A DNA stretch of 61,530 nt, counting the filler, from Rhabdomonas costata (Eukaryota): NCBI GenBank assembly GCA_019059605.1. It is 9 parts of 9 records of this genome, joined end to end, with 100 filler letters (N's around TTAATTAATTAA, not from the genome) between each part and the next. Parts side by side here need not be neighbours in the genome. Positions count along the whole stretch, not along the records: positions 6,674 to 14,612 come from JAHMHO010000010.1; 8 more parts are not named here. One strand, given 5' to 3'. Below the pieces are notes generated by a model. The model made no database searches. It worked only from the letters and a program-made list of their open reading frames with translations, and was not told where the DNA came from. Of the stretch, positions 4,138 to 61,530 are shown piece after piece. The position numbers were made by a program, and so were the translations under genes. Position 1 is the first letter of the stretch. Each line of letters opens with the position of its first letter.

Positions 4138-6015
4138 TCACATCCACAGTGAAGAGAGATTGGGAAAAAACGGAGAGGCCTCAAGTGCTTCCAGTACTGC
4201 ACCGCCGATCTGATTGTCCCTGACAACCAAGGAGGTAAGGTTGGGGAAGAATGAGGAGGCTGCAAATGCGTGCATTCCCGCATCTCCGACCTGATTCCTG
4301 CGCATGGCCAAAGTAGTAAGCTTGGGGAAGAAAACGGAAGCTGCCAGTGCTTGCACGCCCGCATCCCCGATCTGATTACTGCTCACATTCAAAGAGGTAA
4401 GATTGGGGAAGAAAGGGGAAGCTGCTAGTGCTTGCACGCCCCCACCGCCGATCTGGTTGCCACTCAAATCCAAGGAGGTAAGCTTGGGAAAGAATGTTGA
4501 GGCTGCAAGTGCTTGCAGGCCCGCAGGGCCGATATGATTGTCCGTCACATCCACGGAGATAAGCTTGGGTAAGAAAGGGGAAGCTGCTAGTGCTTGCATG
4601 CCCGCATCCCGGATCTGGATGGCGCTCGCGTTCAAGGAAGTAACCTTGGGGAAGAAGGCGGAGGCTGCAAGGGCTTGCATTCCCGCATCCCCGATCGGAT
4701 TGAAGCCCACATCCAAGGAGGTAAGGTTGGGCAAGAAAGAGGAGGTTGCTAGTGCATGCGCGCCCGCATCCCCGATCTGATTGTCCCTCAAATCCAAGGA
4801 GGTGAGCATGGGGGAGAAAGCGGAAGCTGCAAGTGCTTGCATTCCAGCAGACCCCATCAGATTCCAACGCACGTTCAAGCAGGTAAGGCTGGAGAAGAAA
4901 GGGGAAGATGCAAGTGCCTTAAATCCCCCATCGGGGATTTTATTGCTACCCAAATCCAAGGAAGAGAGGTTAAGGAAGAAAGGGGAGGCTGCAAGTGCTT
5001 GCATTCCTGCAGAACTGATCTGACAAGCGCTCACTTTCAAGCAGGTAAGGTTGCGCAACACAGAGGAAGCTGCTAGTGCATGCATACCTGCAGACCCGAT
5101 ATGATTGAACGTCACATCCAAGGAAGAAAGATTGGTGAAGAATGAGGAGGCTGCAAGGGCTTGCGCACCCGCAGAACCCATCTGATTGGTGCCCACGTTC
5201 AAGGAGGAAAGGTTGGGATATAATGCGGAAGTTGCAAGTGCTTGCATTCCAGCATCGCCGACCTCGTTGTTCCACACATTCAAGAAGGTAAGGTCGGGGA
5301 AGAAAGCGGAAGCTGCTATTGCTTGCATTCCCGCATCGCCGATATGATTGCCACCCACGTTCAAGCAGGAAAGGTTGGGGAAGAATGAGGAGGATGCAAG
5401 TGCTTGCATTCCCGTTTCCCGAATTTGATTGATACCCACATCCAAGGAAGTCAGGTTGGGGAAGAAAACAGAAGCTGCTAGTGCTTGCATTCCCGCATCC
5501 TGGATCTGATTGATACCCACATCCAAGGAGGAAAGGTTGGGAAAGAATGCTGAAGCTGCTAGTGCTTGCATTCCCGCATCCCGGATCTGATTGCCACCCA
5601 CATCCAAGGAGGTAAGCTTGGGGAAGAAAGAACATGCTGCAAGTGCCTGCATTGGCGCTTCACTCATCCTGTTACCTCGGATATACAGAGAATTGAGGTT
5701 GGGAAACAAGCAGGAAGTGGAGTGTGCAGCCATTTCCGCACCCACCCCAAGCAAATGAGTCAACAGCTTCTTCTTTTTCACGGAAATCACCGCAGCGGAA
5801 CAAGCCAGCAGGAAGCTCTGAGCCCCAAATTGCTCATCTGCGAGGTCTTGAAGGGTTTTTGGGAGGCGGAGCATAACTCTCCACTCCGGGGCAAGATTCT
5901 CATCAACCAGCACTTTAAACTTTTTGGAAACCAGCCGTAGGCTGAGATGCGAATTCAGCCCCAGAAACCGAAAGCTGCAAACCAAAGTGTCGTCGAAACG
6001 AGGAAGGGTAGTCAT
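4138..6015 (-). CDS. F-box-like/leucine-rich repeat protein, intronless, 625 aa
   Basis: N-terminal LPRFDDTLVCSFRFLG...LRLVSKKFKVLVD fits an F-box pattern. It is followed by ~19 tandem 27-aa (81-bp) repeats FPxLTSLDVxxNQIGDAGMQALAASxF. Confidence 0.9.
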   Translation of the reverse strand: MTTLPRFDDTLVCSFRFLGLNSHLSLRLVSKKFKVLVDENLAPEWRVMLRLPKTLQDLADEQFGAQSFLLACSAAVISVKKKKLLTHLLGVGAEMAAHSTSCLFPNLNSLYIRGNRMSEAPMQALAACSFFPKLTSLDVGGNQIRDAGMQALAASAFFPNLSSLDVGINQIQDAGMQALAASVFFPNLTSLDVGINQIRETGMQALASSSFFPNLSCLNVGGNHIGDAGMQAIAASAFFPDLTFLNVWNNEVGDAGMQALATSALYPNLSSLNVGTNQMGSAGAQALAASSFFTNLSSLDVTFNHIGSAGMHALAASSVLRNLTCLKVSACQISSAGMQALAASPFFLNLSSLDLGSNKIPDGGFKALASSPFFSSLTCLNVRWNLMGSAGMQALAASAFSPMLTSLDLRDNQIGDAGAHALATSSFLPNLTSLDVGFNPIGDAGMQALAASAFFPKVTSLNASAIQIRDAGMQALAASPFLPKLISVDVTDNHIGPAGLQALAASTFFPKLTSLDLSGNQIGGGGVQALAASPFFPNLTSLNVSSNQIGDAGVQALAASVFFPKLTTLAMRRNQVGDAGMHAFAASSFFPNLTSLVVRDNQIGGAVLEALEASPFFPNLSSLWM

Positions 6016-6573
6016 TAGCTTGCTTTCGTCAAGGTATAAGGCTGTGAAGAAATGAAAAGGAAATGGAGATTGGCCTGATGCTTTTCCAAGCCCTGGAGAG
6101 ACCCATCCTCTTAACTGGATAATGGGATTTCCTGGACCCCCACCCCAATTCCTTGCAAGACACCTCTTTACCCGGTCATTGGGGACACATACATCCGTTC
6201 CATTTCAACAGCCAGCTCGTTCGCGGTCTCTGCCCCAGAGCGGGAACCTTCCAACAGCTCCATGCAACGCAAATCTCCGGCGATGCAAAAATTCTCACCG
6301 CCCGGCAATGGAATGACAGTGCTGCCGCCGGTGGCTCTCACCCGTGCATGGGATGCTGTGCCAAGATGTGAGGTGGTGGGACTGTTGGACGCCGCGACTC
6401 CGGACGATCCGCGGATGGTGGCTTCCAAGTTGCTGCTCAAGAATCGGCTCCACCTACCGCTACATGTGTGGCCGGTGTAGGTGGCGCAGGTGTTGCCCAG
6501 AACCCATCAAAGTGCCACTTGTGAAGTTAAAGATCCTTATTACTGACAACAATATTCTTATTCCCCACCAAAA

Positions 6574-6673
6574 NNNNNNNNNNNNNNNNNNNNNNNNNNN
6601 NNNNNNNNNNNNNNNNNTTAATTAATTAANNNNNNNNNNNNNNNNNNNNNNNNNNNNNNNNNNNNNNNNNNNN
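6574..6673. other. Artificial contig spacer
   Basis: N44-TTAATTAATTAA-N44 (stops in all six frames). Confidence 0.99.
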
Positions 6674-6986
6674 GTGGTGGGTGTGTTTGGGGGGTGGGTG
6701 ACGTCCCCAGGCCAGCTCCCCGACAACTGACTGGTTATTCTCAGTGGGAGGGTTTGACTTTCCTTTTAGTGGGTTGGCTTTGCCAGATTGGGATACGACT
6801 CAAGGGAGCCGCTTTGGAACGGAACTATGGGGGTTGCAGCGAGAGTTCAATCCGAGCCCCACGGGTTCACTCTTCACTCTCAGTTTTAAAACCACTAAAC
6901 CGCGCAGCTATGTTCTCCAGCAGGAATCATCCGTACGAGGTGTCCAATTGTCGAGACGAACCCTCATGCGGTAGGGGGGGTCACAG

Positions 6987-7971
6987 GTGCGGAATTGGAG
7001 CCGGCAGCTGAGCATGCTGGAGCGGAGGTACGCAGAGGCAGCGGCCGCGCAGCCCCCATCGGGGTCCTCGCCAGCCGCGGCTGCCGCCGCTCCACGTGCG
7101 CGTCGTTTTGCCTCTTTTTTCCACACCGAAAAACAAGCGCGGTGGTCATTGTCCACCGAGGTGAGAAGCCCGCTTTGTTCCGCCTTCAATCGGAAATCGA
7201 ACAACACGGTCGGGACTTTGGGCTCAAAAAAGACCTGAGCCCACGGAGTCACCTCCAAACGTCAGAGGAATGTACCATTTTCTTCAGCAGATGCATTATA
7301 TGGTCCGCGATGCCCTCCTGCAATTCCCGTTTGCACCGCACCCACATGAGGTAGAAGTGTTTTTCTGCTGAATTTGCAACCTTGTGGAGTGGACCGGATG
7401 ATATATGAAGGTTGTGTTGCCTGTATTGCTTACAAGGTTAGTTTTCTAATTGGTAATCATTGGTAATCAAGCATTCGAAAGACCCTAGAATTCCCCGGTT
7501 CTGAATTTATGATGGACTTTAGAACTTTTTCGTGTTTTGTATTGAACTTGCCGTGCTACACCCTCTCAAGAATCCATTTCTTTCACACACGCACACATAC
7601 ACGCACGAGCGATTTCTGGGGTGTGGCAAGGAAGGCCCGGATGGGGCATCCTGGCAATCCTGGCAAATTAGCGAGCATTTGCGCAACACCGGGAATTACG
7701 CACCTCACGAGTCAGGAAGTCAGGGGATGTTCAGAAGACCGCGACATCGGCTCCTCCTGATGAAATACGTCATGCGCTAAACACGCGCGGACGCACTCAC
7801 GCCTCTTTCTCAGCGGTGCTTCACCCCGAGGGCACTGTGGCGTCGATGCTCCGCTCTCTTGACCCAGGCCTGCTGTAACGTCTCTCTCCCATTCCCATTC
7901 CCTTTTTGTGTGGGTGTGCTTCGGTTTGTGTCGGGGCTTTCCCAAGTGCGCTTGGCGACCTTGCGTGGTGG
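6987..7971 (+). CDS. Probable fragmentary multi-exon gene of unknown function
   Basis: Several AG...GT-bounded GC-rich segments read as protein (VRNWSRQLSMLERRYAE; MHYMVRDALLQFPFAPHPHE at ~7291-7350; VLHPEGTVASMLRSLDPG). No family was recognised and phases were not fully resolved. Confidence 0.3.
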
Positions 7972-8929
7972 GTGGGCCCCTGCACAGTTGCCCTCTGGTG
8001 TGGTGGAGGGAAAGAGAGGGTTGCACTCTCTCTTCCATGCCGATTTGCTCGGCGAGCCTTCCATTTCCCTGCTTGGGTGGTATTGTAATCTTCTGTACCT
8101 CGCTGTCTTCCTCGCACTTGCTGTACACCTTTTCCTCGGAGATGCATGAAACCGGCTAGCGTAGTGGTCTCCGCCCAATTAGGATGGGTACCTCCTTTTT
8201 TGGTTTGTGGAGAGATGTGCAACTCGCTCTTCTTATGTTAGCAGCGTGGGGCTCGAGAGTATGATGAAGGTTGGGGGGCAAAAGCAGTGTGTGTGTGTGT
8301 ATGTGTGTATGTGTGTATATTCTTGTGTGCGTTTGTGTGTGTGGTTGCTTTTCAGAGCACGTGCTTTTCATATTGTGGACTGCTGGGCGTTTTGATCTGT
8401 GGGTGGTAAGGCGGCAAGCTGAATGGAAAGGAGAATGACATCTGAAATGTTTCTGGTTCTGCTTTAGCATGAAAACCAAGTCACTGCTCCGGGGAGCTCC
8501 ACGAAAACGGTAGATAGGACTGACCAGGCAACACACAGAGGTAAGGTGTTGATGAAAAGGGTTACGTCCCATATCATGTGTGCATATTTACGTCTGCTCG
8601 GTATCCTGCTTCACTTGCGACACGTTCATGAACTTCGGTTGGAAACGTGGAAATGCGTGTACCTCTTCCGCCATTTAATGTTTGTTAGTAGGCGGTAATG
8701 ACTCTATGGCGGGAGGGTGGGGTGGGGTGAGGTTGGAGGTGTGCTAACTTACCAGCAACCGGTTTGTTCCTTGAGCACTTGTGAAAAGCCACCTCCATAA
8801 GAGACTTACCCTATCCTATTCGCCGCGATCTCTGAGCTGCCCTCTTTCGGTTCTTATCTTCCGGTTGAAGCCAGCTCTCCATCTAATTCGGTCGCAGTAT
8901 CTTCCCGAACCTTTGTAACCTTCTCGAGA

Positions 8930-10570
8930 ATGTCCAGCCCCCAAGGCGTACTCCGCAGCCTCGCTCTGGTGCGACGCTGTGGAATCCTACCTCAGGCTAG
9001 GAGCTTCAGCACCACCCGGCGCCTCCTGTCGTCCCTGAGGCGCAGGCCTTTCACCTTCGGAGATGCCTTGTTTTTCGCCGTGGGGGTTCCCGGAGTCCTG
9101 TTTATTTTTCTCAACGCCTCCGGATTCTCATGGATAAAGTATTAAGCCTCCGCTGTGCTGATTTCTTCGTTGTGGTGAGGACCCATGAGCTTTCTAATAT
9201 CCTTCGCTGCTGTTGTGGTGAATGATGGTGGTCGTCCTTATTTCGTAAAAAAAGTAAAGTAACGTTGATACTCACTCTCACCATAATGTACCACCGCTCC
9301 CTTGCCAGGGACGCCTTTGTGTGCGAAGAGGATCCTTTGTCCTCTAGATTGTAGCATTTTGCTTATCGAACGGGTTCTACATCAGTGTAGATATGTTTCT
9401 GGGAAGGGCTGCACATATAGACCCGCTGAATTTCTTTTTGGAGCGTTCGAAGTGTTCATCGTATTTCTTTCATCTCCTTGCTGCGTTGGGTGGCGTTGTA
9501 GCCATAGTCGCTGCTTCGGTTTGAAACTTAAGCAACAATCTGGTGAATCTCGTCATGTTGTTTCTCTTCGGTTTTCCGTGTGGACGGTGTGGACTCTTCA
9601 GAAATGTTGTGTTTACCCGCTGGCCGCTGGATGACCCAAAACATGCATAGCATCACAGCCCACCGCAAGGACGTTCAAAGTCTCGAGAGGTCGGGCAGAG
9701 GCCTTTGGTTTCCCGATGGATGGAACGCAACTCTTGATTCCAGAATTCTTGTGGAGCAGACAGCAACTGCTGTGGTACTTGCCGCCGCCGCCACCGCCTT
9801 TGCATGTTGGGTGGGGGGGATGTTATGCCACCGCGCATTCTCCTTGCATTCTCCTCCAAGAGAAATTTTCCTCATTTTCCATTTTCCTCATTTTCCTGCT
9901 CTCATTGGTGCTGGGAGGGAAAGAAATTGCGTAGCAGGGCCCTTTTCTGGCCTCCATTTCTGGCTGTTCCTTTTCTTTCTTAAGTTCATAATGATACTTC
10001 TCGGAGTAACACTTTTGCTATTATAACTTCCGAACTCATCGCCTACCCCTCCCCCTCCCCCCGCGCGCATACGTTAATGTGTGTGTGGCAAATAAGGCAG
10101 TGACTGTTTGGAACAGTGCAATGTGTGTGAGCGTCGAGAAACATTGGCAGTGATGCGGGAACCGCGAAAAACAAGTCTCTTGGTCTCTCCACGGAGCTCG
10201 TGTTGTCGAATGTACATCACCACCGTCGGGCTCATGCTGTGAAAGCTTGACCCCAGCGAACCGCAATAAATAGTGGCGCGACTCGGAGGTGAGGGGACTT
10301 CGCGGCTCACTCTCACCAACGCGCACACACTATGCACAAATCGTTATAAACCCCCAAGTGATCAACGGAGACCAGGGCAGTTTTCTTTGCAAAGCTGCAG
10401 GGACGTGGCTGATGCGCCGTTTCCTCACGCATTCTCTTCTCGAGGAGGGTTCTCGAAGACCTATTGTTTCTGCTTTTCTGTTTCCAAAGTTGCTCCTTTT
10501 GGCAGCATTTACGCTTTTTGCGCCGGGCATCATACCAATACACGCATGGCTTGCAGTTGTCGATAGCTGA
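8930..10570 (+). CDS. Small membrane protein with a mitochondrial-presequence-like N terminus (~118 aa; exons 8930-9138, 9744-9810, 10490-10570)
   Basis: Two GT-AG introns join the three exons in frame. The N terminus is Arg/Ser-rich and acid-free (ARSFSTTRRLLSS) and is followed by 2-3 hydrophobic segments. Confidence 0.6.
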
Positions 10571-10835
10571 ATTTGGCATACCCGCTTTCCATTACGCCCA
10601 CTGCATTTTGGCTTTCGATGAGGTTTTTCGACCCGTTAACCGAAGGGGACGCGCTGTCCAGAACTGCAATGTTTTTCTGCATAGGGTTTGAAGCTGAAAG
10701 CCAAAAGCTTCGCTCGATAATGTCCGGGTGACCTGACTGGCCAGTCAATTTCCTGAAGGATGGAACATGAACTCACATGCAACGAGAAATGAATACTTCC
10801 GCGTAGTTTGTGTCTTCTTTTGAAATAAGCTTCTG

Positions 10836-13149
10836 ATGTCTTTGCTTTCCAAAAATCTCCCTCCTCGGGAGGCCCTGATGTCGCTCTTGGCCTTCCAGGC
10901 CTGTCACGTAATGGGCGCGTTGGCTCAGCTGGGGATTCCAGACCTTCTTTTGGACCTTCCCTCTACCGCCGCGGCTGTTGCGCGTCAGTGTGAGCTAAGC
11001 CCGGACGCCTGCTTTCGGCTAATGCGGGCTGGGGTAGCGGTGGGTGTTTTGCAGGTGAATCCCGGCTCCGATGCCTCTACTAGGCCGTCACCAAGAGTTT
11101 GCACTGGCGGCGGCGAACTTTCAATGGCGGGCATAAGATGCACCGCAATCTCGTACACTGGTTAGCTAGCTCCTGGACAACATTATGCACACAATGGAAA
11201 CTGCTCCGTTAATGGCAGCATTTGAAGGACCCCAACCCCGCCACAGCACGATCTCCATGGGTTCGTGTCAGTGGCGACGGGAATGTGGCTAGCGCCGCCC
11301 GGCCAAAGAGGCCGGATGGCTTCGTTTGCGTGTTGGTTGTCGTTATATGTTTGGAGTAATATCGCGAAAAAGAAAGTGTGACCTCTTTTACATGTTCCTC
11401 CCGCACAAAAGTAATTTACTGTCGTGTGGTCATGTAACGTTTGTGGAAAGCGAGCAAGCTTTCCTGGCGAAGAGATAAGAAACCTGCTGCCCTCCGCGGG
11501 TGCAATCCTTGGCCACGGCCACACATCCAGATGACCCTATCAACACTGTGGTCTTCTCTCTTACGGAGGCTGGGCACCTTCTTCGGAAGGACTCCCCGGG
11601 CTCCCACCACGCCTTCCTGTGTGGGCTGGTGATGCCGGGGCAGTACCTCCCCTTTGTCATGCTTGATCAGGCTGTTCGCAGTGGCCAGAGCACCACCCGG
11701 CAGACCCTGGGTTGTGACATTTGGGAGCACTTCCGAAAAGCGGAGGCATCTGAGGGCCTGTTGTTTTCTGAGGTCTTGAAGAAGTCCACAGCCCGCATGG
11801 CAAAGGCGCTGGTGGATGCCTCGGGATACGACTGGTCTTGGGTCCGCTTTCGTCAAATGCACACTGACGAGGGGTGTGAACAAATCATCAAAGCAAGGTC
11901 ACCGAGTCACGGTTAAAGTGATCTGAGACGGAAAAAGACGGTAAGTCAACATTGGTGACATCACTTCAAAATGAGAAATTCCGGTTTCTGATACGGTTGA
12001 CAAAATTGCTGGATCGATTTGGATCAAAATTTGGAATGAGGCCTTATGGGTCCAAAGTAGTGGCTTTTCAATTGTTCTTCGCTGGAATGATGTTTTGACG
12101 TACCGCGAAGATCCCTTACTTTTGTGGGCGGGGGCAGTTTACCATACGGTACGTGTGCTCAACCTTTAACACCCCGAAAGTGGTTCTCTTGGTTAACTTG
12201 GCTGTTTGTACTTGCCCCTCTCGTTGGTGCACTTAACCTCTCGCCGCACTGTCGTTGACGTCGGAGGCTCCAAAGGCGCCTTCCTTTCCTCTGTTCTGCT
12301 GAAGGTGCCCTCCGCAAAGGGCATCCTGCTGGACCTTCCCGAGATTGTCTCGGAAGCCCCTGCTTACCTGCAAGCCCGTGGGGTGGCCGATCGCGTGCAG
12401 TGCGTGGGCGGGGATTTCTTGAGCTCCATGCCTTTTGGGGACTGCTACTTGGTGAAGCACATCCTCCTGAACTGGTTTTTTTGCTCCAACCCACTGAATA
12501 GCATCAGCGAAATAAAACTAACCTGTCAATAGAAGGTCTGCCATTTTGAGATCATGGTTCGTCAATCTGCACCTTCATGGAACCTTTGCAACATTGCTCA
12601 ACCTTGTTTTAGGCATTTCACACCGTTGAAGTGAAGTGGAGGACGGATGAGTAGCCTGTAGTGCACCATGGTATCCTAACCAGCTCTGCATCGTATACCG
12701 TGGATATGGTTCACTTTTTTCCGCTCAACTGTGAACTAGGGTGTCTCATGTCAATGCCAGGATCCCTGCGATGGGTGCATTGTTTTTTTCGGCCTGCGAC
12801 ATCGGGTGGTCCTGCAGGTCGTCGGTTGGAATGCCCGGAGTTTTGCATATTGTGTCCTTCACTGGGTCGCCTTTTAAGGAGCGACGAACAGTGCCTCCGA
12901 ATCCTGCAGCTCATCCACGATGCCATGGACCCCGCAGGAAGGGTGCTTGTGGTCGAGGAACTTGTGGATAATGCTCGGCTCAATGTTCGGGAGCAGATCC
13001 AGGACATCTCTCTCCTTGTACTGACTGATGGAGGCCGACTGCGCACCCTTGCTGAGCACAAGGCTCTGCTTGGCCGAGCAGGATTTACCCTAACGTCCGT
13101 CCTGAAGTTGCAGTCGTGCATCTTGGAGGCGACAAAAGCACCGCCATGA
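10836..13149 (+). CDS. Class II SAM-dependent O-methyltransferase (COMT/ASMT-like, Methyltransf_2 with dimerisation domain); exons ~10836-11078, ~11527-11851, ~12243-12474, 12879-13149
   Basis: Motifs LGIPDLL...FRLMRAGVAVGVL, YDWS, TVVDVGGSKG, LLDLP, VGGDFL, YLVKHILLNWSDEQC, GRVLVVE and GGRLRT occur in order. Intron 3 (12475-12878) is GT-AG; the boundaries of introns 1 and 2 are uncertain (see findings). Confidence 0.9.
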
Positions 13150-13817
13150 CAACAATGATGACGAACCTGCAGGCTTGTGGGCACCCCTTGTGGACGTTTT
13201 TCTTACCCTCTCTGATGAGGGAAAGCCCTTTCTTCTGTGCGAATCATTCCACAATTGGGGCTTGGAGTGTTGTACTATGGTTTTAGGCGTTCCTCCGCAA
13301 CAAGTTTACCCCTCGCACGCACGGGCCTCGGAGATTTACTCCCTACATAGCTCAGCTCTTCGTGCTCATGCACGCCAACTACGATGAGTCTGGCCCACGT
13401 GTATGATGAACCGCCGTTTGTTGCACAGTTTTGTGGTTCCCGGTTGTTGGTGTGTAAAGCAGAACATTAGCACCAGCTCTCGTGACACTTACCACTGCAA
13501 AATTCATGTGGTGTGCAGCTTGCTGGCATGCATATCTTACCGTCTGCCTTAAGTAAATGTATTTCCTTCCGGAATTACCGCTGTATTCAATGAAGTACTA
13601 TTGTGATGGTCAGCAGTAATCTGCGCAGTTTCTTTTGTTCCCCCTGCCCGCCTTCGCTTCACCCGTCAACTGTAGCTGCTGTTTGAGTGCCCGGTGGCTT
13701 CAGCAGCAATAGGCAAGCTGATGAAGCTGTGATCCGTGCTAAGTTCCGGTTTCGCCGTTTTTTTGCAGCTGACCTCTTCTTCCTGTATTTTGTCCTTCCT
13801 CCTTCTCCTCCTGAAAG

Positions 13818-14612
13818 ATGACCTCGTCCCTATGCGAGGATACATTAGTTTGCAGCTTTCGATTCCTAGGGCAAAAGTCACAACTCGGCCTGCGGCTGGT
13901 TTGCAAGCAGTTTCGAAGGCTTGTTGATGAGAGTCTCGCCCCTCAGTGGAAGATTGTGCTGCGGTTCCCACAGCCCCTCAACGATCCCACGGATTGCCAA
14001 AATGCGGCACAGAGCTTGCGGCTTGCGTGCTCTGCCGGGGTGATTTCGGTGAGAAGCTGGAAGCTTATGGAAGGCTTAATTGGGATCGGAGCTGAAAAAA
14101 GGATGGTCACACCCTTGTTTCCCAACCTCACGTCTCTGGTTGTCCAAACCATCATCGTCAGACCGGGAATGCAAACATTTCCAGCTTCGTCTTTCTTCCT
14201 CAAGCTTACACCTTCGGATTTGAGTGAGAATTGGGTCGGAATTGCGGGAATGCGAGCATTTGCAGCTTCCTCTTTCTTCCCCAAGCTTACCTCCTTGATT
14301 GTGTGCCAGAATTACATCACTGCATTGGAAATGCAAGCTTTTGCAGCTTCCTCTTTCTTCCCCTATCTTACCTCCTTGGTTGTGCGCGCTAATCACATTG
14401 GAGATGCGGGAATGCAAGCACTTGCAGCTTCATCTTTCTTTCCCAACCTCACCTCTTTGGATGTGAGCGAGAATCACATTGGAGATGCGGGAATGCAAGC
14501 TTTTTCTGCTTCCTCCTTCTTCCCGAACCTCAACTCCTTGAATTTGAGGTGGAATGAGATCACAGTAGCGGGAATGCAAGCATTTGCAGCTTCCTCTTTC
14601 TTCCCCAAAACA
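13818..14612 (+). CDS. F-box-like/LRR protein paralogue, truncated by the contig end
   Basis: Clear paralogue of 4138-6015 (DTLVCSFRFLG...LRLVCKQFRRLVDESLAPQW; same 27-aa repeat). Confidence 0.88.
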
Positions 14613-14712
14613 NNNNNNNNNNNNNNNNNNNNNNNNNNNNNNNNNNNNNNNNNNNNTTAATTAATTAANNNNNNNNNNNNNNNNNNNNNNNNNNNNNNNN
14701 NNNNNNNNNNNN
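14613..14712. other. Artificial contig spacer
   Basis: N44-TTAATTAATTAA-N44. Confidence 0.99.
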
Positions 14713-22805: not shown

Positions 22806-22905
22806 NNNNNNNNNNNNNNNNNNNNNNNNNNNNNNNNNNNNNNNNNNNNTTAATTAATTAANNNNNNNNNNNNNNNNNNNNNNNNNNNNNNNNNNNNNNN
22901 NNNNN
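22806..22905. other. Artificial contig spacer
   Basis: N44-TTAATTAATTAA-N44. Confidence 0.99.
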
Positions 22906-25035
22906 TGTGTTTTTTTGCAGTGTCTGGGTGCGACCCCCTCCCCGTGGAGGCCGTATAGCACAGAGATCCCGGGCTGCTGGTGCCCACGTCGGCGAAGGTT
23001 AACGGGCAGGAAGGTGCCGTCGTCACGGGAAGGGGGTCGCACCCAGACACTGCAAAAAAAGATAAACCGCGACAGCCATTTGAAAAGGATAGGAGTTCTG
23101 CTGGTTGACCAAATATAAATGCCTGCGGGCATTTGGAGACTTTCTGGACAGTATTAACGTACGGTACTCAGTTGTATCTTGCATCACAAAATCTGCGCTG
23201 CTGCAGCTGCAGCGGGTACTCTCCTTCCCACAGTACATCTAACTGTTCCCAAAATGAGCGGTGGAACCAAAGCGAAATTGGACTTTAAGGAAGATGCGGA
23301 TTTGGAATGGAAATCACGAAATTCTTTGATGTCAAAGGAGGTATGCGCGGAAGGGGGGGGGTGATGAGTGAGTGAGATGGGGTGATGAGCACACCCGGTG
23401 TGAGCAGCCAGGGAACAGCCACAAGGCACAAAAGCACAGCGGGTGAGACAATTCTTTCCATCGTTATGCTTTTTCTTGCGGACAAATAAATCTGCAAAAA
23501 AAAATCGGCAACGATATATCGTGTCTTGAAACGTCATAGACCTCCAAAAAAGTGAGGCGTTCTAGAAGGGCACAAAAACACTCACTTATACACCACACAA
23601 GCCGAAAATGCAAAGACACACGATGTGCGGAATATGACATCTGGAAGTACGTTGGCAGACTAAGGCAGACACAAGGCCCGAACGTGCTAAGCAGAAGAAA
23701 GACAAATTTTTGGAAACGCATAAAAGAAGAGGACCGAGGTATATCGCAAAATGGGCAACCAACGTGCATCCCCGGGTTCCGGGGCATCACCTTTTAACCA
23801 TATAGTAATACATTCTCACCAGACTCAGCTGAGAATACCACCCTGTAGCCGAAATAATGATTGGATTGAAGGGCAAAAATCTTGCTTTCCGATCCAGCAT
23901 CAAAAAGAAGCCGTTCTACCCCACACGTTTTTGCACCGTAACAGCCGCAAATGCGCAGTTTGGTGGCTACCACCGCTGCGCACACAGTTAATCGGTGCCA
24001 AAATCTATTCTGTTGCATCTGGAGATCTAACTCAACGCTTTTTGCACAATTGTACAGGAAGATGAGTAAGATGGTATTGTGGACATCTTGACGGGGTTTT
24101 GGGACATAATTGCATGAGTACGATACTCTGATGCGACAAATGGATAGATCCCCGGAGCGGACGTTTGAGCCGGCATCTGACTTGGCAACAAGTCAAGCCA
24201 GCAAGCGTGTAACTTATTGAGGCAAGAGGTCTACCTATACTGTGACATCTACTGTTCAGATTAAGAAGGGCCAGATAACCCATGAGAATTTACTGTTGCC
24301 AAACGATAGCACCCCCCCCCTCCATCGCTACATCAAAATCAGATAGTCACACGCTTTCACATTCCCAACCCTTCCCAGATAACGGCCTATGCAGAGCGGC
24401 AGGAAGAAAAGAAAGCGTGCACAACAGGCGCGGACCTAGGCACAGCATAACCGTCCCGCACCAAAAAAAAAGCAATGGCGCAGAGAGAGGGAGAAAGAAG
24501 CACTGGAAAAGGCAAACGTATGAAACTTCGAATTAGCTGGCTTTCTCAAGTGTCAAGCGGAGAGGGAGACAGAGGCAGACAAGCCAGGGAGAAAATGTGA
24601 GAAGCAGAGACAAACAAATCGAGTACATACGAGCGGAAGCGAGTCTGGGTTACATGGGATCCCAAACCAGAGAAGGAGTCTCGCATTACATGAAAGAGGA
24701 GAGCGCCTGGGGAGGGGAGGGGAGGGGAGGGAAAAGAGCTGAAGCCCGTCACCGAGAGCAGAGCATCGAAAAACTATTCAGAAGATACCGCAACAAATGA
24801 GCTGAGCTGTGCCACGACTAGAAACTGAAGAAGCATGAGAAAAGCGCAAGCTTGTCAATACCAAATGCAAAGATAACGGCACAGAAACGCATGAGCAGAG
24901 GGCAGGATCATATATGCTGTGCATAGCGCAGAAAAAGGTGAAAGACAACCACTCGAGCACAGCAGAAACACAAAACTGAGCTAAAAACCGCCTTTACCCC
25001 GTCGCAGGCATCAGCGCACTAAATCAAGAAGGACC

Positions 25036-26154
25036 CTACGAAAAAGTCCGAGATGGAGCCACTCTCAGCACCTCAGCCAAGGCCGCGATGCGGATGGGCT
25101 TCAACAAAAACTGGTCCGCTCCCGCGGAGATCATCTCTACCCTGGACGTGGCGCTGCCCGACATCCCGATGATCAACGAGCAGACCCCAAATCCACGAAC
25201 GCAGCGGATCAGCTCCACCCCAGTGACCTCCGGCATGATGTTGTCCACCACCAAAAGGTCAAACGAGCTGCGCCGGCCGACGGCTTGTCCCGAGGTAAGC
25301 CTTTCCACGGCCTGGGACGACGATGTCTCCACCCCCACAGAGCAGTGTAACGCGGAAAGCAGAGCGGCGACGATCCGGGCGGAAACCGCGTCATCGTCCA
25401 CCACAAGCGCTGCACACACCACGGTGTTCTGGGGAGGCAGCGGAACCTCGGCCTCCCGAAGAATAGCCCGCATCTGCTCACTCTGCCCGCAGTACTGCGA
25501 GACGCACTCCGGGCACATCACGTGCGTGACGGGGCAGCGCGCTTGAAGCTCCTCCATGTGGGCCTGGAAGAACTCCCCCGGAGTCAGCCAGGCGTCCTGG
25601 TCCTTAAAGCACAGGCACTGGCTACACTGCGTCCACGGAGAGAGGGAGCGGTCCTCGGTGACCTCCACCCGGGACATGAACGAGGCGTCCTGGAAGGTTG
25701 CACTCAGGGCGCAGGAGTAATACCGCGCCCCGGTGCCGATGGGGAGGAGCCGCTCCACAATGATGACCATCTCTACCCGGGAGCATGGGGTGTCGCAGAA
25801 CCACCGGAAGCTGATCAACTGCGGAACAACTCCAGCACAGACATTACGGTGAAGGGCTTTGTAGAACGGGTGAAGGGTCGGGGTCATAACCTCCCACAGC
25901 GAGGAGTTCGGACGGTGGTCCGCCGCCTGCCCGTTCGCGTTCAGGGATAGTATAATACCTTCAGTGTCCACCTCGTAGACCACCGTTGGTGGGTAGAATT
26001 GATTGCAGGTGGGTGAGAAAGCCACAGTAGTGTCGAGGGGATGGGAACCGGCATCCCCAGAAAATCGCAGGGAGAGGCGGGAGGGTGCGGTTCGGTTTTT
26101 GAACACGCGGAAGCAATCCAGGCGGGAGGAACATGGGCAGCAACACAACCCCAT
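25036..26154 (-). CDS. Intronless PAS-like + CxxC...HxxCxxC zinc-ribbon + response-regulator receiver protein, copy 1 (372 aa from MGLCCC)
   Basis: The receiver has LVVDDD, FDLLVVDNIMP (phospho-Asp), IIGMSG and FLLKP. The middle region has CSQC...THVMCPEC. The first ATG after the pyrimidine-rich leader is taken as the start instead of the longer TTG-initiated ORF call. Confidence 0.85.
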   Translation of the reverse strand: MGLCCCPCSSRLDCFRVFKNRTAPSRLSLRFSGDAGSHPLDTTVAFSPTCNQFYPPTVVYEVDTEGIILSLNANGQAADHRPNSSLWEVMTPTLHPFYKALHRNVCAGVVPQLISFRWFCDTPCSRVEMVIIVERLLPIGTGARYYSCALSATFQDASFMSRVEVTEDRSLSPWTQCSQCLCFKDQDAWLTPGEFFQAHMEELQARCPVTHVMCPECVSQYCGQSEQMRAILREAEVPLPPQNTVVCAALVVDDDAVSARIVAALLSALHCSVGVETSSSQAVERLTSGQAVGRRSSFDLLVVDNIMPEVTGVELIRCVRGFGVCSLIIGMSGSATSRVEMISAGADQFLLKPIRIAALAEVLRVAPSRTFS

Positions 26155-29100
26155 CCGGGGAAGAAAAAAAACAGGAACACAGAAAGTGAATGCGTTCTGA
26201 AGAGAACAAGGAGTTCTTAGTCGCAACTGACCTAAATATCCAATTTCCCATGGCTGGACAACAAAAGCAGAGCAGTCCAACATGCTCCAAATGGATGAGG
26301 ACACGGTGTTTGGTGGTTTTCTCAGGGGCGCTGGCAACATCGCCCCTTAGCATTAGACTCACAGCTTTGTTGTTTCCTTTACCGTCAGATACAAGTTCAC
26401 GCCCGCGGCTCTCCAGGCGCTCCAGGACCACGCCAGAGTACACCGCATTCAGAGACCGAGCATTCGTGCGCTTTGACTGATTAGGATCAGTGCATCATAA
26501 CAGTGCGGGAAGCTGCAGAGAACTCAGCGGATACACAGGAAACAAAGTTACACAACAACCGATATATAAAAACCAAAGGGACGAAAGCTCCGATATGTTT
26601 TTAAGTTACAACTGTACTGAGAATCACGAAATCCGTCCGTTTCCTGAATGACGATGCAAAGTAGGACCACATCCCACACAACATTAATGCACTACCCATT
26701 AGAACTCACAAAATAAAACTAAAAAAATGTCGCACACCATCGGCGTAGAAACACAAAATAAAACATACCTTTTTTAAGGGGTATGGACGAAAATGGCAGG
26801 TGACATCGCGGCATCTTGACCGGTTTTCTGACATAATCCCAAGAGAGAAAATTCTAATTTGAGTTGCGGAGAAACGTCCGTGGCGGGCCCGGAGCGGGCC
26901 GCTACGCCGGCGAGCCGGTATCTGGCGTCCTTTTGGGGGGCGACAGCAAGCATGTTCTGGAGGATAGAAGTTGGACCGTAGAAGCATTCCTAGATGCAGT
27001 TCATTGCATTAGATCATGCCTAGTGTTGGATGAAGCTCAAGACTGGCTACGTGAAGTGTGAATGTTTAACATTTGATGGTGTTAAACGTCTGACTGATTT
27101 CCAATGCCAATATGCGCTTTTGCCTCCATATCCTTTCCAAGAAGACAGCATGCAGAAGCGTAGCGGAGGACGGTCAAGCCAGCGCACACAGCAGACACGC
27201 GAACACAACAGCTTCAGAAGGTGCTCACCAGAACCTGGGCACAAGCTCATGCGTCCATCCAAAGAGCGTACCAAACAAAAACGGAAAGGATAACAAACTG
27301 GAAAAAGCATCAAACATGGAAGCATTGTGCTCTGCCAAGCAGTGAGAGAGGCGTCAAGGTGCACAGAAAGAGGCCGATTGCAGCAATCGCAGGAGTCTCA
27401 CATCAAATGAGAGAACACAAGCACCTGGAGAAGACAGGAAGACAGAAAAAATGAGTTGCAGCCCGCCAGCAGCATCAAAACGAGCAGAAAACACGGAAAC
27501 CAAATCACTGTGCTGTGCCACGACCACCTTCACGTGAAGAACAATAATAAAGCGCACACAAGCTTGTCAATACCAAACACTGGCAGAAGACCACCAAGCA
27601 CCGGAATGCAAGGTGCAGACGGCAGGATATCCTCTGCTGTGCAAAGAGCCGAGAACTGAAGAAAAGAGGCAAGCACAGGAAAAGAAAAGAAAATTACGCT
27701 GCCGGAAGCAGAGCGGCTGCACTAACCTCGACGCGATCCTGAAAATATCGGGGTGATGCCACTCTCAGCACCTCAGCCAAGGCCGCGATGCGAATGGGCT
27801 TCCACAAGAAATGGTCCGCTCCCGCGGAGATCATCTCTACCCTGGACGTGGCGCTGCCCGACATCCCGATGATCAACGAGCAGACCCCAAATCCACGAAC
27901 GCAGCGGATCAGCTCCACCCCAGTGACCTCCGGCATGATGTTGTCCACCACCAAAAGGTCAAACGAGCTGCGCCGGCCGACGGCTTGTCCCGAGGTAAGC
28001 CTTTCCACGGCCTGGGACGACGATGTCTCCACCTCCACGGAGCAGTGTAACGCGGAAAGCAGAGCGGCGACGATCCGGGCGGAAACCGCGTCATCGTCCA
28101 CCACAAGCGCTGCACACACCACGGTGTTCTGGGGAGGCAGCGGAACCTCGGCCTCCCGAAGAATAGCCCGCATCTGCTCACTCTGCCCGCAGTACTGCGA
28201 GACGCACTCCGGGCACATCACGTGCGTGACGGGGCAGCGCGCTTGAAGCTCCTCCATGTGGGCCTGGAAGAACTCCCCCGGAGTCAGCCAGGCGTCCTGG
28301 TCCTTAAAGCACAGGCACTGGCTACACTGCGTCCACGGAGAGAGGGAGCGGTCCTCGGTGACCTCCACCCGGGACATGAACGAGGCGTCCTGGAAGGTTG
28401 CACTCAGGGCGCAGGAGTAATACCGCGCCCCGGTGCCGATGGGGAGGAGCCGCTCCACAATGATGACCATCTCTACCCGGGAGCATGGGGTGTCGCAGAA
28501 CCACCGGAAGCTGATCAACTGCGGAACAACTCCAGCACAGACATTACGGTGAAGGGCTTTGTAGAACGGGTGAAGGGTCGGGGTCATAACCTCCCACAGC
28601 GAGGAGTTCGGACGGTGGTCCGCCGCCTGCCCGTTCGCGTTCAGGGATAGTATAATACCTTCAGTGTCCACCTCGTAGACCACCGTTGGTGGGTAGAATT
28701 GATTGCAGGTGGGTGAGAAAGCCACAGTAGTGTCGAGGGGATGGGAACCGGCATCCCCAGAAAATCGCAGGGAGAGGCGGGAGGGTGCGGTTCGGTTTTT
28801 GAACACGCGGAAGCAATCCAGGCGGGAGGAACATGGGCAGCAACACAACCCCATCCGGGGAAGAAAAAAAACAGGAACACAGAAAGTGAATGCGTTCTGA
28901 AGAGAACAAGGAGTTCTTAGTCGCAACTGACCTAAATATCCAATTTCCCATGGCTGGACAACAAAAGCAGAGCAGTCCAACATGCTCCAAATGGATGAGG
29001 ACACGGTGTTTGGTGGTTTTCTCAGGGGCGCTGGCAACATCGCCCCTTAGCATTAGACTCACAGCTTTGTTGTTTCCTTTACCGTCAGATACAAGTTCAC

Positions 29101-29405
29101 GCCCGCGGCTCTCCAGGCGCTCCAGGACCACGCCAGAGTACACCGCATTCAGAGACCGAGCATTCGTGCGCTTTGACTGATCAGGATCAGTGCATCATAA
29201 CAGTGCGGGAAGCTGCAGAGAACTCAGCGGATACACAGGAAACAAAGTTACACAACAACCGATATATAAAAACCAAAGGGACGAAAGCTCCGATATGTTT
29301 TTAAGTTACAACTGTACTGAGAATCACGAAATCCGTCCGTTTCCTGAATGACGATGCAAAGTAGGACCACATCCCACACAACATTAATGCACTACCCATT
29401 AGAAC
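25058..29405. repeat. Tandem duplication with 2700-bp period (25058-26705 vs 27758-29405)
   Basis: About 1.65 kb is identical apart from ~7 substitutions seen by eye. The downstream flanks (~24600-25030 vs ~27400-27690) are homologous but much more diverged. Confidence 0.95.
27694..28854 (-). CDS. Intronless PAS-like/zinc-ribbon/receiver protein, copy 2 (386 aa, different C-terminal tail)
   Basis: Near-identical to copy 1. It differs at SVEVE/SVGVE, DHFLWKP/DQFLLKP and the tail SPRYFQDRVEVSAAALLPAA. Confidence 0.85.
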   Translation of the reverse strand: MGLCCCPCSSRLDCFRVFKNRTAPSRLSLRFSGDAGSHPLDTTVAFSPTCNQFYPPTVVYEVDTEGIILSLNANGQAADHRPNSSLWEVMTPTLHPFYKALHRNVCAGVVPQLISFRWFCDTPCSRVEMVIIVERLLPIGTGARYYSCALSATFQDASFMSRVEVTEDRSLSPWTQCSQCLCFKDQDAWLTPGEFFQAHMEELQARCPVTHVMCPECVSQYCGQSEQMRAILREAEVPLPPQNTVVCAALVVDDDAVSARIVAALLSALHCSVEVETSSSQAVERLTSGQAVGRRSSFDLLVVDNIMPEVTGVELIRCVRGFGVCSLIIGMSGSATSRVEMISAGADHFLWKPIRIAALAEVLRVASPRYFQDRVEVSAAALLPAA

Positions 29406-29412
29406 ACACAAA

Positions 29413-45400: not shown

Positions 45401-48152
45401 GCGGAGGTACCCAAACAGCCCACAGCACCGCACCAGGATCAGCGGGATGTTGGCCTTCAGAAGTATGCTGGGAGGAGGGGCAGGGGAGGGAGGCTGATGT
45501 GAGATGAGACGGAGATGTGACGGAGCAGTGAAGAGCAAGGGGATGAATGGAACATATCTCTGCATCGCAAAGGGAAGTCAAACGAGCCAACGGCTAGAAG
45601 CCTTAACTCCAAAGGTTAAATCCACCGCCGAATGTACAATAGTGGCCGTATGCATTAATTGCCAAACGTTGATCCAAAACCTCCTCCTTAAGATTTCAGC
45701 ACTTCTTTACACAGGGGATGGGTAGCGATCCCACGTTCCCGGGATTGCAGGTTGGACCCTTTCTTGGGACCAAACCCCATTTCAAGCCTTTCAAGCCTAC
45801 ACATCCATTTGCACTGGTGTTCAGAGCGAATCACATCAATAAATCTTGACCCTAGACGAAAAAAAAACGGTAGAAGGTGCACAACTCGGGGAATGGCACG
45901 CTCAGAACAGGATTTCCTCAACCTCAAAATGACAGGGTATGCGGATGCTGCCGTTTTTCCGTTTTCCGAGGTGCTCAGAAAGTATGACTACTACAGAAGC
46001 AGCAGACCTGGACAGCTCTAATGACAGGGGTTCGTCCAGCTGGGTGGCGATGACCAGGGTGAATCCGGACTCTGCAAAGTAGTTCGGGCGGGTGCGGATC
46101 AGCTCCGCTGGGGAGACCAGCAGGAAGGTCCCCTTGACGTCCGGATTGAGCTCGGCCAGGGTGCTTGTAACGCTCTTGGCCTGTAGCAAATAAAAGGGGT
46201 TCACCTATTTTGGGTAATTCTTATGTGGACCGGGAACAGAATCATCGCGTTGAAGCTCTTCACTGTGATTGCCATGTGCTGATTGCTTAGCTGAAGAAGT
46301 CCTTCTTGTTTTCTTCATTGTCTTCGCGCGCGCGTGCGTGTGGAAACGAAAACCATCATGGGCTTCAGAAAAGATTGCCCACAAAAAAAACTAACAGGAC
46401 CAAACAGGCCGTTTGTGCCGTTTGCCGCGTGCCACCGTTCCATGCTGAACCCATGACCGCAGACACCACGTGTCTTCAGGATTTCCATTGCATTCGGAGC
46501 CGCGGCGCCCAACAATGCTCACATCTCTTTCCTCAGAGAGATCGCCTGCTGGATGGCTTAGTCCAGCCACAAACGGCTCTAGCTACAACGATGACCATCT
46601 TGAGCGGTTTTTTGTCGTCTGGCGAAAAGTGAGGAGAAGAGAGAGGAGAAAAGATGGAAAGGAAACACAAATCTACAAATCATTCCAGAACAATGGCATT
46701 GCTACTACGGGTGGCTGTACATGCAGCGATGATGGAGGGCTCCAGACCGGACATGATCAGACGCAGCTCCGTCGGCATATGCTTGACAGCAAAGAATTGG
46801 TGCATCTCAGCATCCACATGGCAAAGGTGTGTGTTACCAGGGGGCTTCCCAAGTCCTCGACCGTTGCGAAGAAGTTGTTGCCCAGGTCACCCTCGGTCAC
46901 GATGGCGTCGCTGACGATAGTAAAGCTGCCCACTCCGGGCAGCACGAGGTTCTTAAGGGTCTCCGTGGCCACTCCAGAGGCATTCAGTACGCAAATCTGC
47001 ATCCCCAGATGCCCAGCAATTAGTGATGGCTATCAATACCATGGCTCCTAAGTGGCAAGGGGCTTTCGGAAGAAGGGGCTGCAGACGGGAGGAGGCTGGA
47101 GTTGACTACGTCATGCGCATGCCATTATGGATACTCTGATTGCTGTTTGACGAAAGACGTTAGACCTCGGTGGAGGAAAACTGAGAGCAGGTCAGGCAAG
47201 AATCGTAACCGTCACAACAAAACGAACTCGGAAAGTGGTGGCTCTCCCGGGTGCTGGGTGCGGCTCACCAGCGGCACCCATTCAAAGCTAAAGCACAGGT
47301 TTACGACGAAACACGGTTCCCGATATTCGAGAAGAAATTGCAGGGAGTTAAAAGGAGCCGGAAGCTAGAGGGCAAATGCACGGTTCGCCTGGAATCGAAC
47401 AGAAGGGTGTGCAGTGAGGTTAGAGTGTGACGGATTTCGTTCTGAGGTCCACAAGAACGTCCACGACGTCTTGGATACAAAGTGATCCTATTAGTTTATC
47501 TCTGGCACCTACCTAACATCTGCTGTTATACAGGCTATAATGATGACAGAACGGATACTGTCAGGCAGCGAAGTGGGCTAAGCCAAAGCAGGCCTGGGGT
47601 TTTTGTGTATACAACGGGCCTCCCGAAACTCTGCATTGCCGGTCCTTGGAGTCAGAATTTTCTGAACTGTCACCCTAGGCCGGTCGTGGTGCCCTTTGGC
47701 GGCTCTTTCGTAACCCTTTTGTGCCGCTTCTTGCCCCACGCAGCGGGGGTTTTACGACAGCACGCACAACGTTTTCACAAGAAACAAACCCACTCCGAAC
47801 GGGGCAAGGCAATTGGTGACGGAACCTCCCCACGTCAAATCGCAAAAACCGTTGGAAGAAACTGAAAATGTGATGCGCTTAGGGGACGATGGATGAACAT
47901 CACATCACATTTATTCCTTGACGGGACAGTTGTGTCTTGTTGTTGGCGTTTGTGTATGTTTGTGCGATGAAAAGACGGAAAAAACACGCAACGTTCTTAG
48001 ATGTATTTGTACGTGCTGGAAGCGAGGCATTCAGCAACCTTTGCGTGCTCGAGAGCGGCCTGGCCGGAGCTCCCCCAGAGCCGAAGCTGGCGGTCGTACT
48101 TCTGCTCTTTGAACGAGGGCGGCGCTGCCTCCGAAGCCACCTGCGTGCTCAT
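42484..48152 (-). CDS. NAE1: NEDD8-activating enzyme E1 regulatory subunit (APP-BP1), 3'-truncated; exons 48152-48039, 46996-46838, 46180-46008, 45467-45353, 44483-44391, 43916-43790, 43419-43272, 42533-42484
   Basis: [65 protein letters not shown] and [12 protein letters not shown] occur in order. All seven introns are GT-AG and phase-consistent. Confidence 0.93.
44830..45186. mobile_element. MITE-like element (~357 bp) with ~45-bp imperfect terminal inverted repeats in NAE1 intron 4
   Basis: Left end gtactgggtaagtgaaaattacccccaagggaaaaatttccccc versus reverse complement of the right end gtacggctaagtgaaaatttttctcccaagggaaaaatttcccca. No coding capacity. Confidence 0.65.
47674..47812 (+). 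repeat. Dispersed ~140-bp intronic repeat, copy A
   Basis: Aligns with 54847-55000 on a different contig (ggccggtYgtggtgcccYttggcggctcttt...gccgcttcttgccYcacgcagc...tttacgacagcac...ccgaacgggg). Confidence 0.9.
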
Positions 48153-51245: not shown

Positions 51246-54824
<3,579 letters not shown>

Positions 54825-61300: not shown

Positions 61301-61530
61301 GTCCCCAGCACGACATTTATTGGGCCAATGAGCAACTTCACTGGAATGGAGCGTGACGCGATGCGGCCAAACTGGACGGTGAGTGTGCCGATCGGCGTGT
61401 TCAGCTACTTTGACCCACGCCGCAACATCTCTGATCAGCCGAATCCCTTCCTCTCCAACAACCTTCTTGCTTCCCCAACGGTGCTCCCACCTTCGGGAGT
61501 TGTGGCCGGACAGGTGGCTACGCTGCAGTA
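55369..61530 (+). CDS. Giant intronless repeat protein (>2050 aa, both ends missing) with ~16 tandem ~125-aa beta-sandwich (DUF11/Ig-like) units; one +1 frameshift at ~57718
   Basis: The ORF runs 55375-57717, then a second frame is open without a stop from 57719 to the window end (read codon by codon; absent from the ORF track). Each unit reads V.AG...G.E.h.hP...W...C-x(7-9)-C.L...hWLFF.P...G. NxS/T sequons are numerous. Confidence 0.85.

Follow-up and report, generated by a model that had tools for sequence, protein, structure and literature searches.

Euglenid nuclear genes contain a class of nonconventional introns, which are described as having non-canonical borders, a secondary structure that joins their two ends, and frequent direct repeats at the junctions (PMC3935182, PMC4770533, PMC11282704). 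In the present study we analyzed a window of 61,530 nucleotides (61.5 kb; the whole stretch of DNA examined here) from the euglenid Rhabdomonas costata, and in it a gene for a family-2 O-methyltransferase whose coding sequence is interrupted by 400 nt. We think that this interruption, which lies at 11848-12247 or up to 4 nt to the left of it, is probably a member of this class of nuclear introns.

Several properties of the class have been reported. A pyrimidine/purine step is found at both junctions (Milanowski 2016, PMC4770533), and complementary triplets, usually CAG/CTG, are conserved at +4 to +6 and -8 to -6 (PMC3935182, PMC4770533, PMC11282704). Direct repeats at the junctions are typical (PMC3935182, PMC12501133), and 84.4% of the introns are slidable in Euglena agilis (PMC12501133). 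According to PMC11282704, the class has no polypyrimidine tract, its members are removed after the conventional introns and are seen as full-length circles, and the mechanism has been established in no euglenid. In Euglena, a code of the form 5'-N3CDG..CH'GN5-6/R, together with pairing beside the triplets, was defined by genetics, and it is present in 61.2% of the nonconventional introns of E. agilis (Nomura 2025, PMC12501133).

As for R. costata, Soukal et al. (2021; PMC8219788, section 7 and Fig. 4) reported seven putative nonconventional introns, four of them "very likely", from the mapping of transcripts to contigs. The only intron host named in the main text of that paper is NODE_718 / TR27401, a hypothetical protein, and our full-text literature search found no further papers on Rhabdomonas introns. 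Since nonconventional introns are already known in euglenids, the present intron is to be regarded as a further example and not as a new mechanism. The first-pass annotation of this DNA had implied novelty, which cannot be upheld in view of the documented introns, including the seven candidates of R. costata (PMC8219788). That is, the intron would be a member of the known euglenid class, and it is possibly already tabulated.

The host gene and the stretch missing from its transcript-derived protein

The host gene is located on the plus strand of the stretch 6674-14612 and has four exons. Its assignment comes from the Pfam families PF08100 (E = 4e-08) and PF00891 (E = 2.8e-17 and 2e-11), and spliced candidate models of the gene scored about 310 bits against a hidden Markov model (HMM) made from 13 homologues. 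All four exons are open, and their GC content is 0.57-0.60.

The search of exon 2 against longer proteins gave a single match, P0001 (eukprot:RCo047025), a protein of 237 amino acids from Rhabdomonas costata. The RCo identifiers denote R. costata transcripts, assembled with Trinity from poly(A) RNA, and the proteins that TransDecoder predicted from them; the protein set as published had been collapsed at 90% identity (PMC8219788). No transcript-derived protein other than P0001 was found in the searches of proteins of 187-2000 and 130-415 amino acids. P0001 begins at MPGQ, within exon 2, and 235 of its 237 residues are identical to the window exons by tblastn, in pieces at 11632-11847, 12245-12475 and 12880-13146. 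The only two differences are GAG (E) in the window against A in P0001 at 11725-11727, and TTG (L) against S at 13108-13110.

Exon 2 (11531-11847, plus strand, frame 10801), the 5' limit of which is uncertain, carries residues 1-72 of P0001 on 11632-11847 (71 of 72 identical) and ends with YDWSWVR, which the genomic frame continues as FRQMH. Exon 3 (12248-12474, plus strand, frame 10802) carries residues 72-148 with 100% identity. It starts with TVVDVGGS, the S-adenosylmethionine (SAM)-binding motif I, which is preceded by SRR in the genomic frame, and it covers positions 64-140 of PF00891 (E = 2.8e-17). At the corresponding place P0001 has the sequence ...DASGYDWSWVRTVVDVGGSKG..., that is, YDWSWVR is directly followed by TVVDVGGS. 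The arginine at residue 72 is encoded twice in the window, at 11845-11847 and at 12245-12247 (tblastn). Because this residue is found on both sides of the interruption, exactly 400 nt are absent from the message. Homologues with 33-43% identity have zero extra residues at the junction (P0006, YDFSGVRTVVDVGG; P0007, YDFSSVRTVVDVGG), and the removal of 400 nt thus restores the spacing of the family. These results indirectly suggest that the 400 nt are not included in the mature mRNA, as judged from a protein predicted from the transcriptome.

The first-pass annotation had proposed excisions at 11852-12242 or 11852-12245, with the product WVRFR(R)TVV and a short CG repeat at the junctions. Comparison with WVR/TVVDVGG of P0001 gives 11848-12247 instead, so that the proposed borders deviate by 4 nt at the 5' side and by 2-5 nt at the 3' side. 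The proposed product is 2-3 residues too long with respect to P0001 and the homologues, and the repeat at the junctions is actually CCGC.

Borders of the intron and pairing of its ends

Within 12150-12275, the dinucleotide AG starts only at 12179, 12265 and 12274, so that 12181-12264 is free of AG, and a TAA lies in frame 10802 at 12194-12196. From the AG-free stretch and the in-frame stop codon, it follows that a GT-AG intron cannot reach SAM motif I; the first-pass claim that the intron has no possible AG acceptor therefore holds.

The 400-nt intron (GC 0.458) resembles the other introns of the gene in composition. Its position can be shifted 0 to 4 nt leftwards because CCGC, which resembles a target-site duplication (TSD), is present both at 11844-11847 and at 12244-12247, and the five registers give an identical joined sequence, with residue 72 mapping to both copies. 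When the interval 11848-12247 is slid from 0 to -4, the ends of the intron become TT..GC, CT..CG, GC..CC, CG..GC and CC..CG, respectively. GT-AG, GC-AG or AT-AC ends are seen in 0 of the 5 registers; that is, terminal dinucleotides of the U2 type or U12 type are absent in frame. The pyrimidine/purine step occurs at both junctions, as C/G twice, in only one register, 11846-12245 (-2), and fails in the other four. In registers 0 and -2, but in no other, the first base of the downstream exon is a purine.

We analyzed the pairing of the two ends at the levels of DNA and RNA. As the first-pass annotation had stated, the arms at 11852-11893 and 12197-12237 are complementary: the former matches the reverse complement of the latter in 31 of 44 columns, the remainder being 8 mismatches and 5 gap columns. 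This identity was not significant as DNA, since 104 of 1000 dinucleotide shuffles reached such a score, as did 158 of 1874 genomic segments. For the RNA duplex, the first 60 nt of 11848-12247 were paired with the last 60 nt, with G-U pairs allowed, and random 400-nt segments of the window served as genomic controls. RNAduplex gave an imperfect duplex between 11852-11907 (5' arm) and 12188-12237 (3' arm), with 39 pairs and -38.4 kcal/mol. This energy was equalled by 5 of 1000 arm shuffles and by 127 of 2818 random 400-nt segments, so that the terminal helix is moderately above chance. The conventional introns used as controls were not above chance, their values being equalled by 247 of 1000 shuffles for intron 3 of the O-methyltransferase gene and 96 of 1000 for the intron of an HSP70 gene in the same window.

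In the folding ensemble, the pair probabilities are 0.2-0.9 for the helix 11862-11906 / 12188-12229. Counted from the ends of the intron, the helix lies between +5 to +11 on the 5' side and -11 to -17 on the 3' side. The folding models indicate that a helix which is real but loose, and which is set back from the cut sites, keeps the two ends of the intron together. An earlier calculation for the span 11844-12247 (404 nt) gave a duplex of -33.4 kcal/mol (33 of 1000 shuffles; 389 of 2775 segments) and was replaced by that for the register 11848-12247. A bulge-helix-bulge geometry, like that of substrates of the tRNA endonuclease, was considered, but the exon flanks form only pairs of low probability (about 0.05). 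Rfam gave 0 matches in the whole window, and no snoRNA or other known RNA was found within the intron. When the 400 nt were compared with the rest of the window, no further copy appeared, and the matches obtained (12-29 nt, E = 3) are attributable to chance.

Taken comprehensively, the interruption agrees with the broad definition of the euglenid class. That is, it lies in a euglenid nuclear gene, it lacks GT/GC-AG ends, it is absent from a transcript-derived protein, its ends pair in a helix, it is bounded by a CCGC direct repeat, and it has the pyrimidine/purine step in one register.

By analogy with Euglena, the removal of this intron may be considered as follows. In the pre-mRNA, the helix 11852-11907 / 12188-12237 would bring both junctions close to each other. 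A machinery, probably other than the U1/U2AF-dependent spliceosome, would then cut both junctions and join the exons. This excision would follow the removal of the conventional introns, and the intron would be freed as a full-length circle. With regard to its origin, the direct repeat CCGC, together with terminal inverted repeats that are imperfect, would fit the published idea of an insertion like a miniature inverted-repeat transposable element (MITE) or of double-strand-break repair. In the first-pass annotation, a second, structure-guided excision was thought to exist beside the spliceosome, as in euglenids. The part of this claim that concerns a non-GT-AG intron with paired ends, which coexists with a GT-AG intron, agrees with our results, and the guidance by structure would rest on the analogy with Euglena.

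The other introns of the gene and the rest of the window

A normal GT-AG intron in the same gene, which the first-pass annotation had also pointed out, is verified by P0001. This is intron 3 (12475-12878, plus strand), a conventional GT..AG intron of 404 nt that is slidable by 1 nt, with the ends GTTTTTTT..CTTTTAAG; in P0001 the flanking residues are joined as HILLNW/SDEQ. The PF00891 profile is unbroken over this intron, with position 140 followed by position 141. Exon 4 (12879-13149, plus strand) carries residues 149-237 of P0001 (88 of 89 identical) and positions 141-209 of PF00891, and it includes the stop codon TGA.

Exon 1 (10836-11054, plus strand, frame 10800) begins with ATG at 10836 and encodes the dimerisation domain (PF08100, profile positions 6-71). 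Its 3' limit is uncertain; the homologues align to 10857-11066. The borders of intron 1 (11055-11530, plus strand) are likewise uncertain. The best GT-AG pair, from CAG/GTGAAT (11055) to CCAG/ (11530), gives 476 nt and is one base out of frame; a removal of 475 nt (GT..CA or TG..AG) would be in frame. An inverted repeat at 11083-11114 / 11488-11520 has an energy of -44.9 kcal/mol, which was equalled by 7 of 1000 arm shuffles. Intron 1 is possibly another nonconventional intron, or an "intermediate" one; alternatively, the assembly may be wrong by 1 nt, or the frameshift may be genuine. The search of proteins of 59-191 amino acids gave no transcript-derived one that covers exon 1 and intron 1. 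Homology did not fix the borders either: when 1252 distinct candidate proteins were scored with the HMM of the 13 homologues, the best 25 lay within about 3 bits. Other placements with GT/GC-AG ends were not convincing. The conserved residues are kept, and then only in part, by the removal of 11065-11530 (GC..AG), which uses a poor donor, or of 11044-11530, which deletes the conserved GVLQ; removal of 11055-11568 deletes the conserved FSLTE.

The window consists of nine stretches of 6162-8093 nt, which are joined by eight spacers of the form N44-TTAATTAATTAA-N44 (for example 6574-6673, 14613-14712 and 22806-22905). Since these are separate stretches, neighbouring ones are uninformative on linkage. 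Conventional introns were also seen elsewhere in the window. In the HSP70 gene fragment at 53895-54824 (plus strand; PF00012, E = 1.9e-29 and 3.3e-51), homology places a GT..AG intron at 54222-54410, and the flanking sites are conventional as well. An E1-like gene at 45905-47029 (minus strand), the product of which we take to be an E1-activating enzyme, has a conventional GTAACA..CTACAG intron and a further GT donor, both placed by homology.

The remaining observations concern repeats and long open reading frames (ORFs). A direct duplication of about 2 kb with 92.6% identity is present at 24674-26712 and 27391-29412. Each of its copies has a long minus-strand ORF (25039-26346 and 27697-29046), and the first of these contains a response-regulator receiver domain (PF00072, E = 2e-14). 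A tandem array at 4138-5661 with a period of about 81 nt (offsets 81, 162-163, 243 and 324; 72-79% identity) lies inside a minus-strand ORF of 688 amino acids at 4141-6204. Inverted relatives of this array are found at 13835-14608, at the end of the methyltransferase stretch. Finally, an open frame of 1282 codons at 57683-61528 (plus strand) reaches the end of the last stretch and has no Pfam match at E <= 0.01.

Alternative explanations and comparison with known introns

The interpretation of 11848-12247 as a nonconventional intron has to be considered together with several results that do not favor it. Two residues of P0001 disagree with the window. These differences could be allelic, paralogue-derived or sequencing errors, and the transcript may accordingly stem from another allele or copy. 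As for the structure, the outermost pairs, 11852-53 / 12236-37, have a probability of only 0.03, and pairing is well supported only inwards from about 11858/12231. The fold of the whole intron is no more stable than those of shuffled sequences (z = +0.83; 78 of 100 shuffles equal). The last 40 nt of the intron are 70% pyrimidine, in contrast to a class said to be without a polypyrimidine tract. Compared with the Euglena code (PMC12501133), the N3CDG donor is found in 0 of 5 registers, and CH'G followed by a spacer of 5-6 nt and a purine is also found in 0 of 5. Positions +4 to +6 and -8 to -6, which hold the complementary triplets in Euglena, form here 0-2 of 3 pairs in all registers, and there is no CAG/CTG. 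In the test of Gao 2024 (PMC11170887), in which the terminal 10 nt of each end are connected by U7 and -2 to -10 kcal/mol is expected, all 5 registers gave 0.0 kcal/mol here. When 20-nt ends were used, the terminal folding gave -1.4 to -6.4 kcal/mol across the registers.

In one alternative explanation, the difference between P0001 and the window is one of DNA. That is, the 400 nt could be a MITE-like or repair-filler insertion in this allele or paralogue, with CCGC as its target-site duplication. P0001 would then derive from a copy that has no interruption, and the window would carry a disrupted, unexpressed or non-functional one. The difference of P0001 at 2 of 237 residues is in line with this explanation, and so are the CCGC direct repeat and the imperfect inverted repeats, as well as the exon 1/2 junction of the window copy, which is out of frame with the best GT-AG pair. 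Close variants of the protein may be hidden because the protein set was collapsed at 90% identity (PMC8219788). With respect to the features of a MITE, the 4-nt repeat is present, and the inverted repeats, which agree in 31 of 44 columns, begin 4 nt (5') and 6-10 nt (3') inside the ends. Such degenerate repeats, which stop short of the ends of the element, would indicate an old insertion, yet the four exons are intact and 99% identical to an expressed protein. No second copy of the 400 nt is present in the window, and we know of no common MITE superfamily that matches a 4-nt duplication other than TTAA, which also counts against an insertion. Furthermore, direct repeats at the junctions are normal for true nonconventional introns, as the slidable introns of E. 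agilis show (PMC12501133). We therefore consider this explanation improbable. An artefact of assembly or amplification, that is, a chimeric contig with a foreign sequence inserted at a microhomology, is far less probable still. It would agree with the 4-nt microhomology at both junctions and with the window being made of short draft contigs joined by N spacers. However, such an insertion requires two chimeric joints, and the second would have to lead back to precisely the codon of the first. Moreover, the 400 nt are neither an inverted nor a direct copy of nearby sequence, and their composition matches that of the other introns of the gene.

Another explanation accepts the 400 nt as a true intron and attributes its removal to the spliceosome, which would act through non-canonical sites while the helix merely brings these sites close, as has been discussed for hemistasiid diplonemids, in which the U2-type spliceosome is completely retained, and for certain introns derived from transposons. 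The pyrimidine-rich 3' end (70% of 40 nt) suits this explanation, as conventional introns of E. gracilis have C-rich polypyrimidine tracts (PMC11170887), and so do the GC at the start of register -2 and the absence of the Euglena nonconventional code. Abundant non-GT-AG introns with paired ends are also known beside a conserved spliceosome (PMC12621601). In contrast, the intron has a 3' AG in no register, and the verified conventional intron of the same gene has plain GT..AG ends. The 5' end, GCTTTC or TTTCGT, is unlike the consensus of a U1-binding site, and we count this against removal by the spliceosome as well. As described above, the mechanism itself has been established in no euglenid (PMC11282704). 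Removal by the spliceosome is thus unlikely in our opinion, and we prefer the interpretation that 11848-12247 is a nonconventional intron of the euglenid class.

The preferred interpretation can be compared with the known systems. The intron resembles those of Euglena (E. gracilis and E. agilis; Milanowski 2014, PMC3935182; PMC4770533, PMC11170887, PMC12501133) in being located in a euglenid nuclear gene, in lacking GT/GC-AG ends, and in having a slidable direct repeat and inverted repeats that pair its ends. It also resembles them in the purine with which exon 3 begins in registers 0 and -2 and in the presence of a GT-AG intron in the same gene. In contrast, the helix begins at +4 and -6 in the Euglena introns and at +5 to +11 and -11 to -17 here, and the 3' end of the present intron is pyrimidine-rich. 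With the seven introns reported for R. costata (PMC8219788), it shares the species, as judged by protein identity, the comparison of a transcript with a genomic contig, and the non-GT(GC)/AG borders.

Similarities are also seen with introns outside the euglenids. The introns of hemistasiid diplonemids (Thakur et al. 2025, PMC12621601) likewise belong to a euglenozoan host and have non-GT-AG ends that are paired. However, their pairing was measured within the 9 terminal nucleotides and their ends are G/C-rich, whereas the terminal 10 nt are unpaired here. Transposon-derived introns (introners and MITE-derived introns; PMC11282704) are similar in the TSD-like 4-nt repeat, the imperfect terminal inverted repeats (TIRs), the length of about 400 nt and the non-coding nature. 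Introners are multi-copy and mostly obtain GT-AG ends from the TSD or TIR (PMC11282704), whereas the 400 nt have no second copy in the 61.5 kb and no GT-AG.

The present case has some value because it is anchored by a transcript-derived protein, in a heterotrophic euglenid with only seven reported candidates, and stands beside a verified GT-AG intron. Its disagreement with the Euglena splicing code is what chiefly makes it remarkable. As it lacks the CAG/CTG triplets required in Euglena, the intron could serve well as a test substrate: removal by the Euglena machinery, or by Rhabdomonas itself, would mean a recognition rule broader than the published code. We tentatively speculate, as a possibility that is still doubtful, that Rhabdomonas, a primary osmotroph far from Euglena, reads a different signal, in which CAG/CTG is absent, a long imperfect helix is set back 5-17 nt from both cuts, and a short direct repeat marks the place of the cuts. 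A second case is perhaps provided by intron 1, whose GT and AG are one base out of frame and whose ends have a still stronger inverted repeat. If this speculation were true, R. costata would have more introns of this kind than the seven on record, and the code found in Euglena would not be valid across the euglenids.

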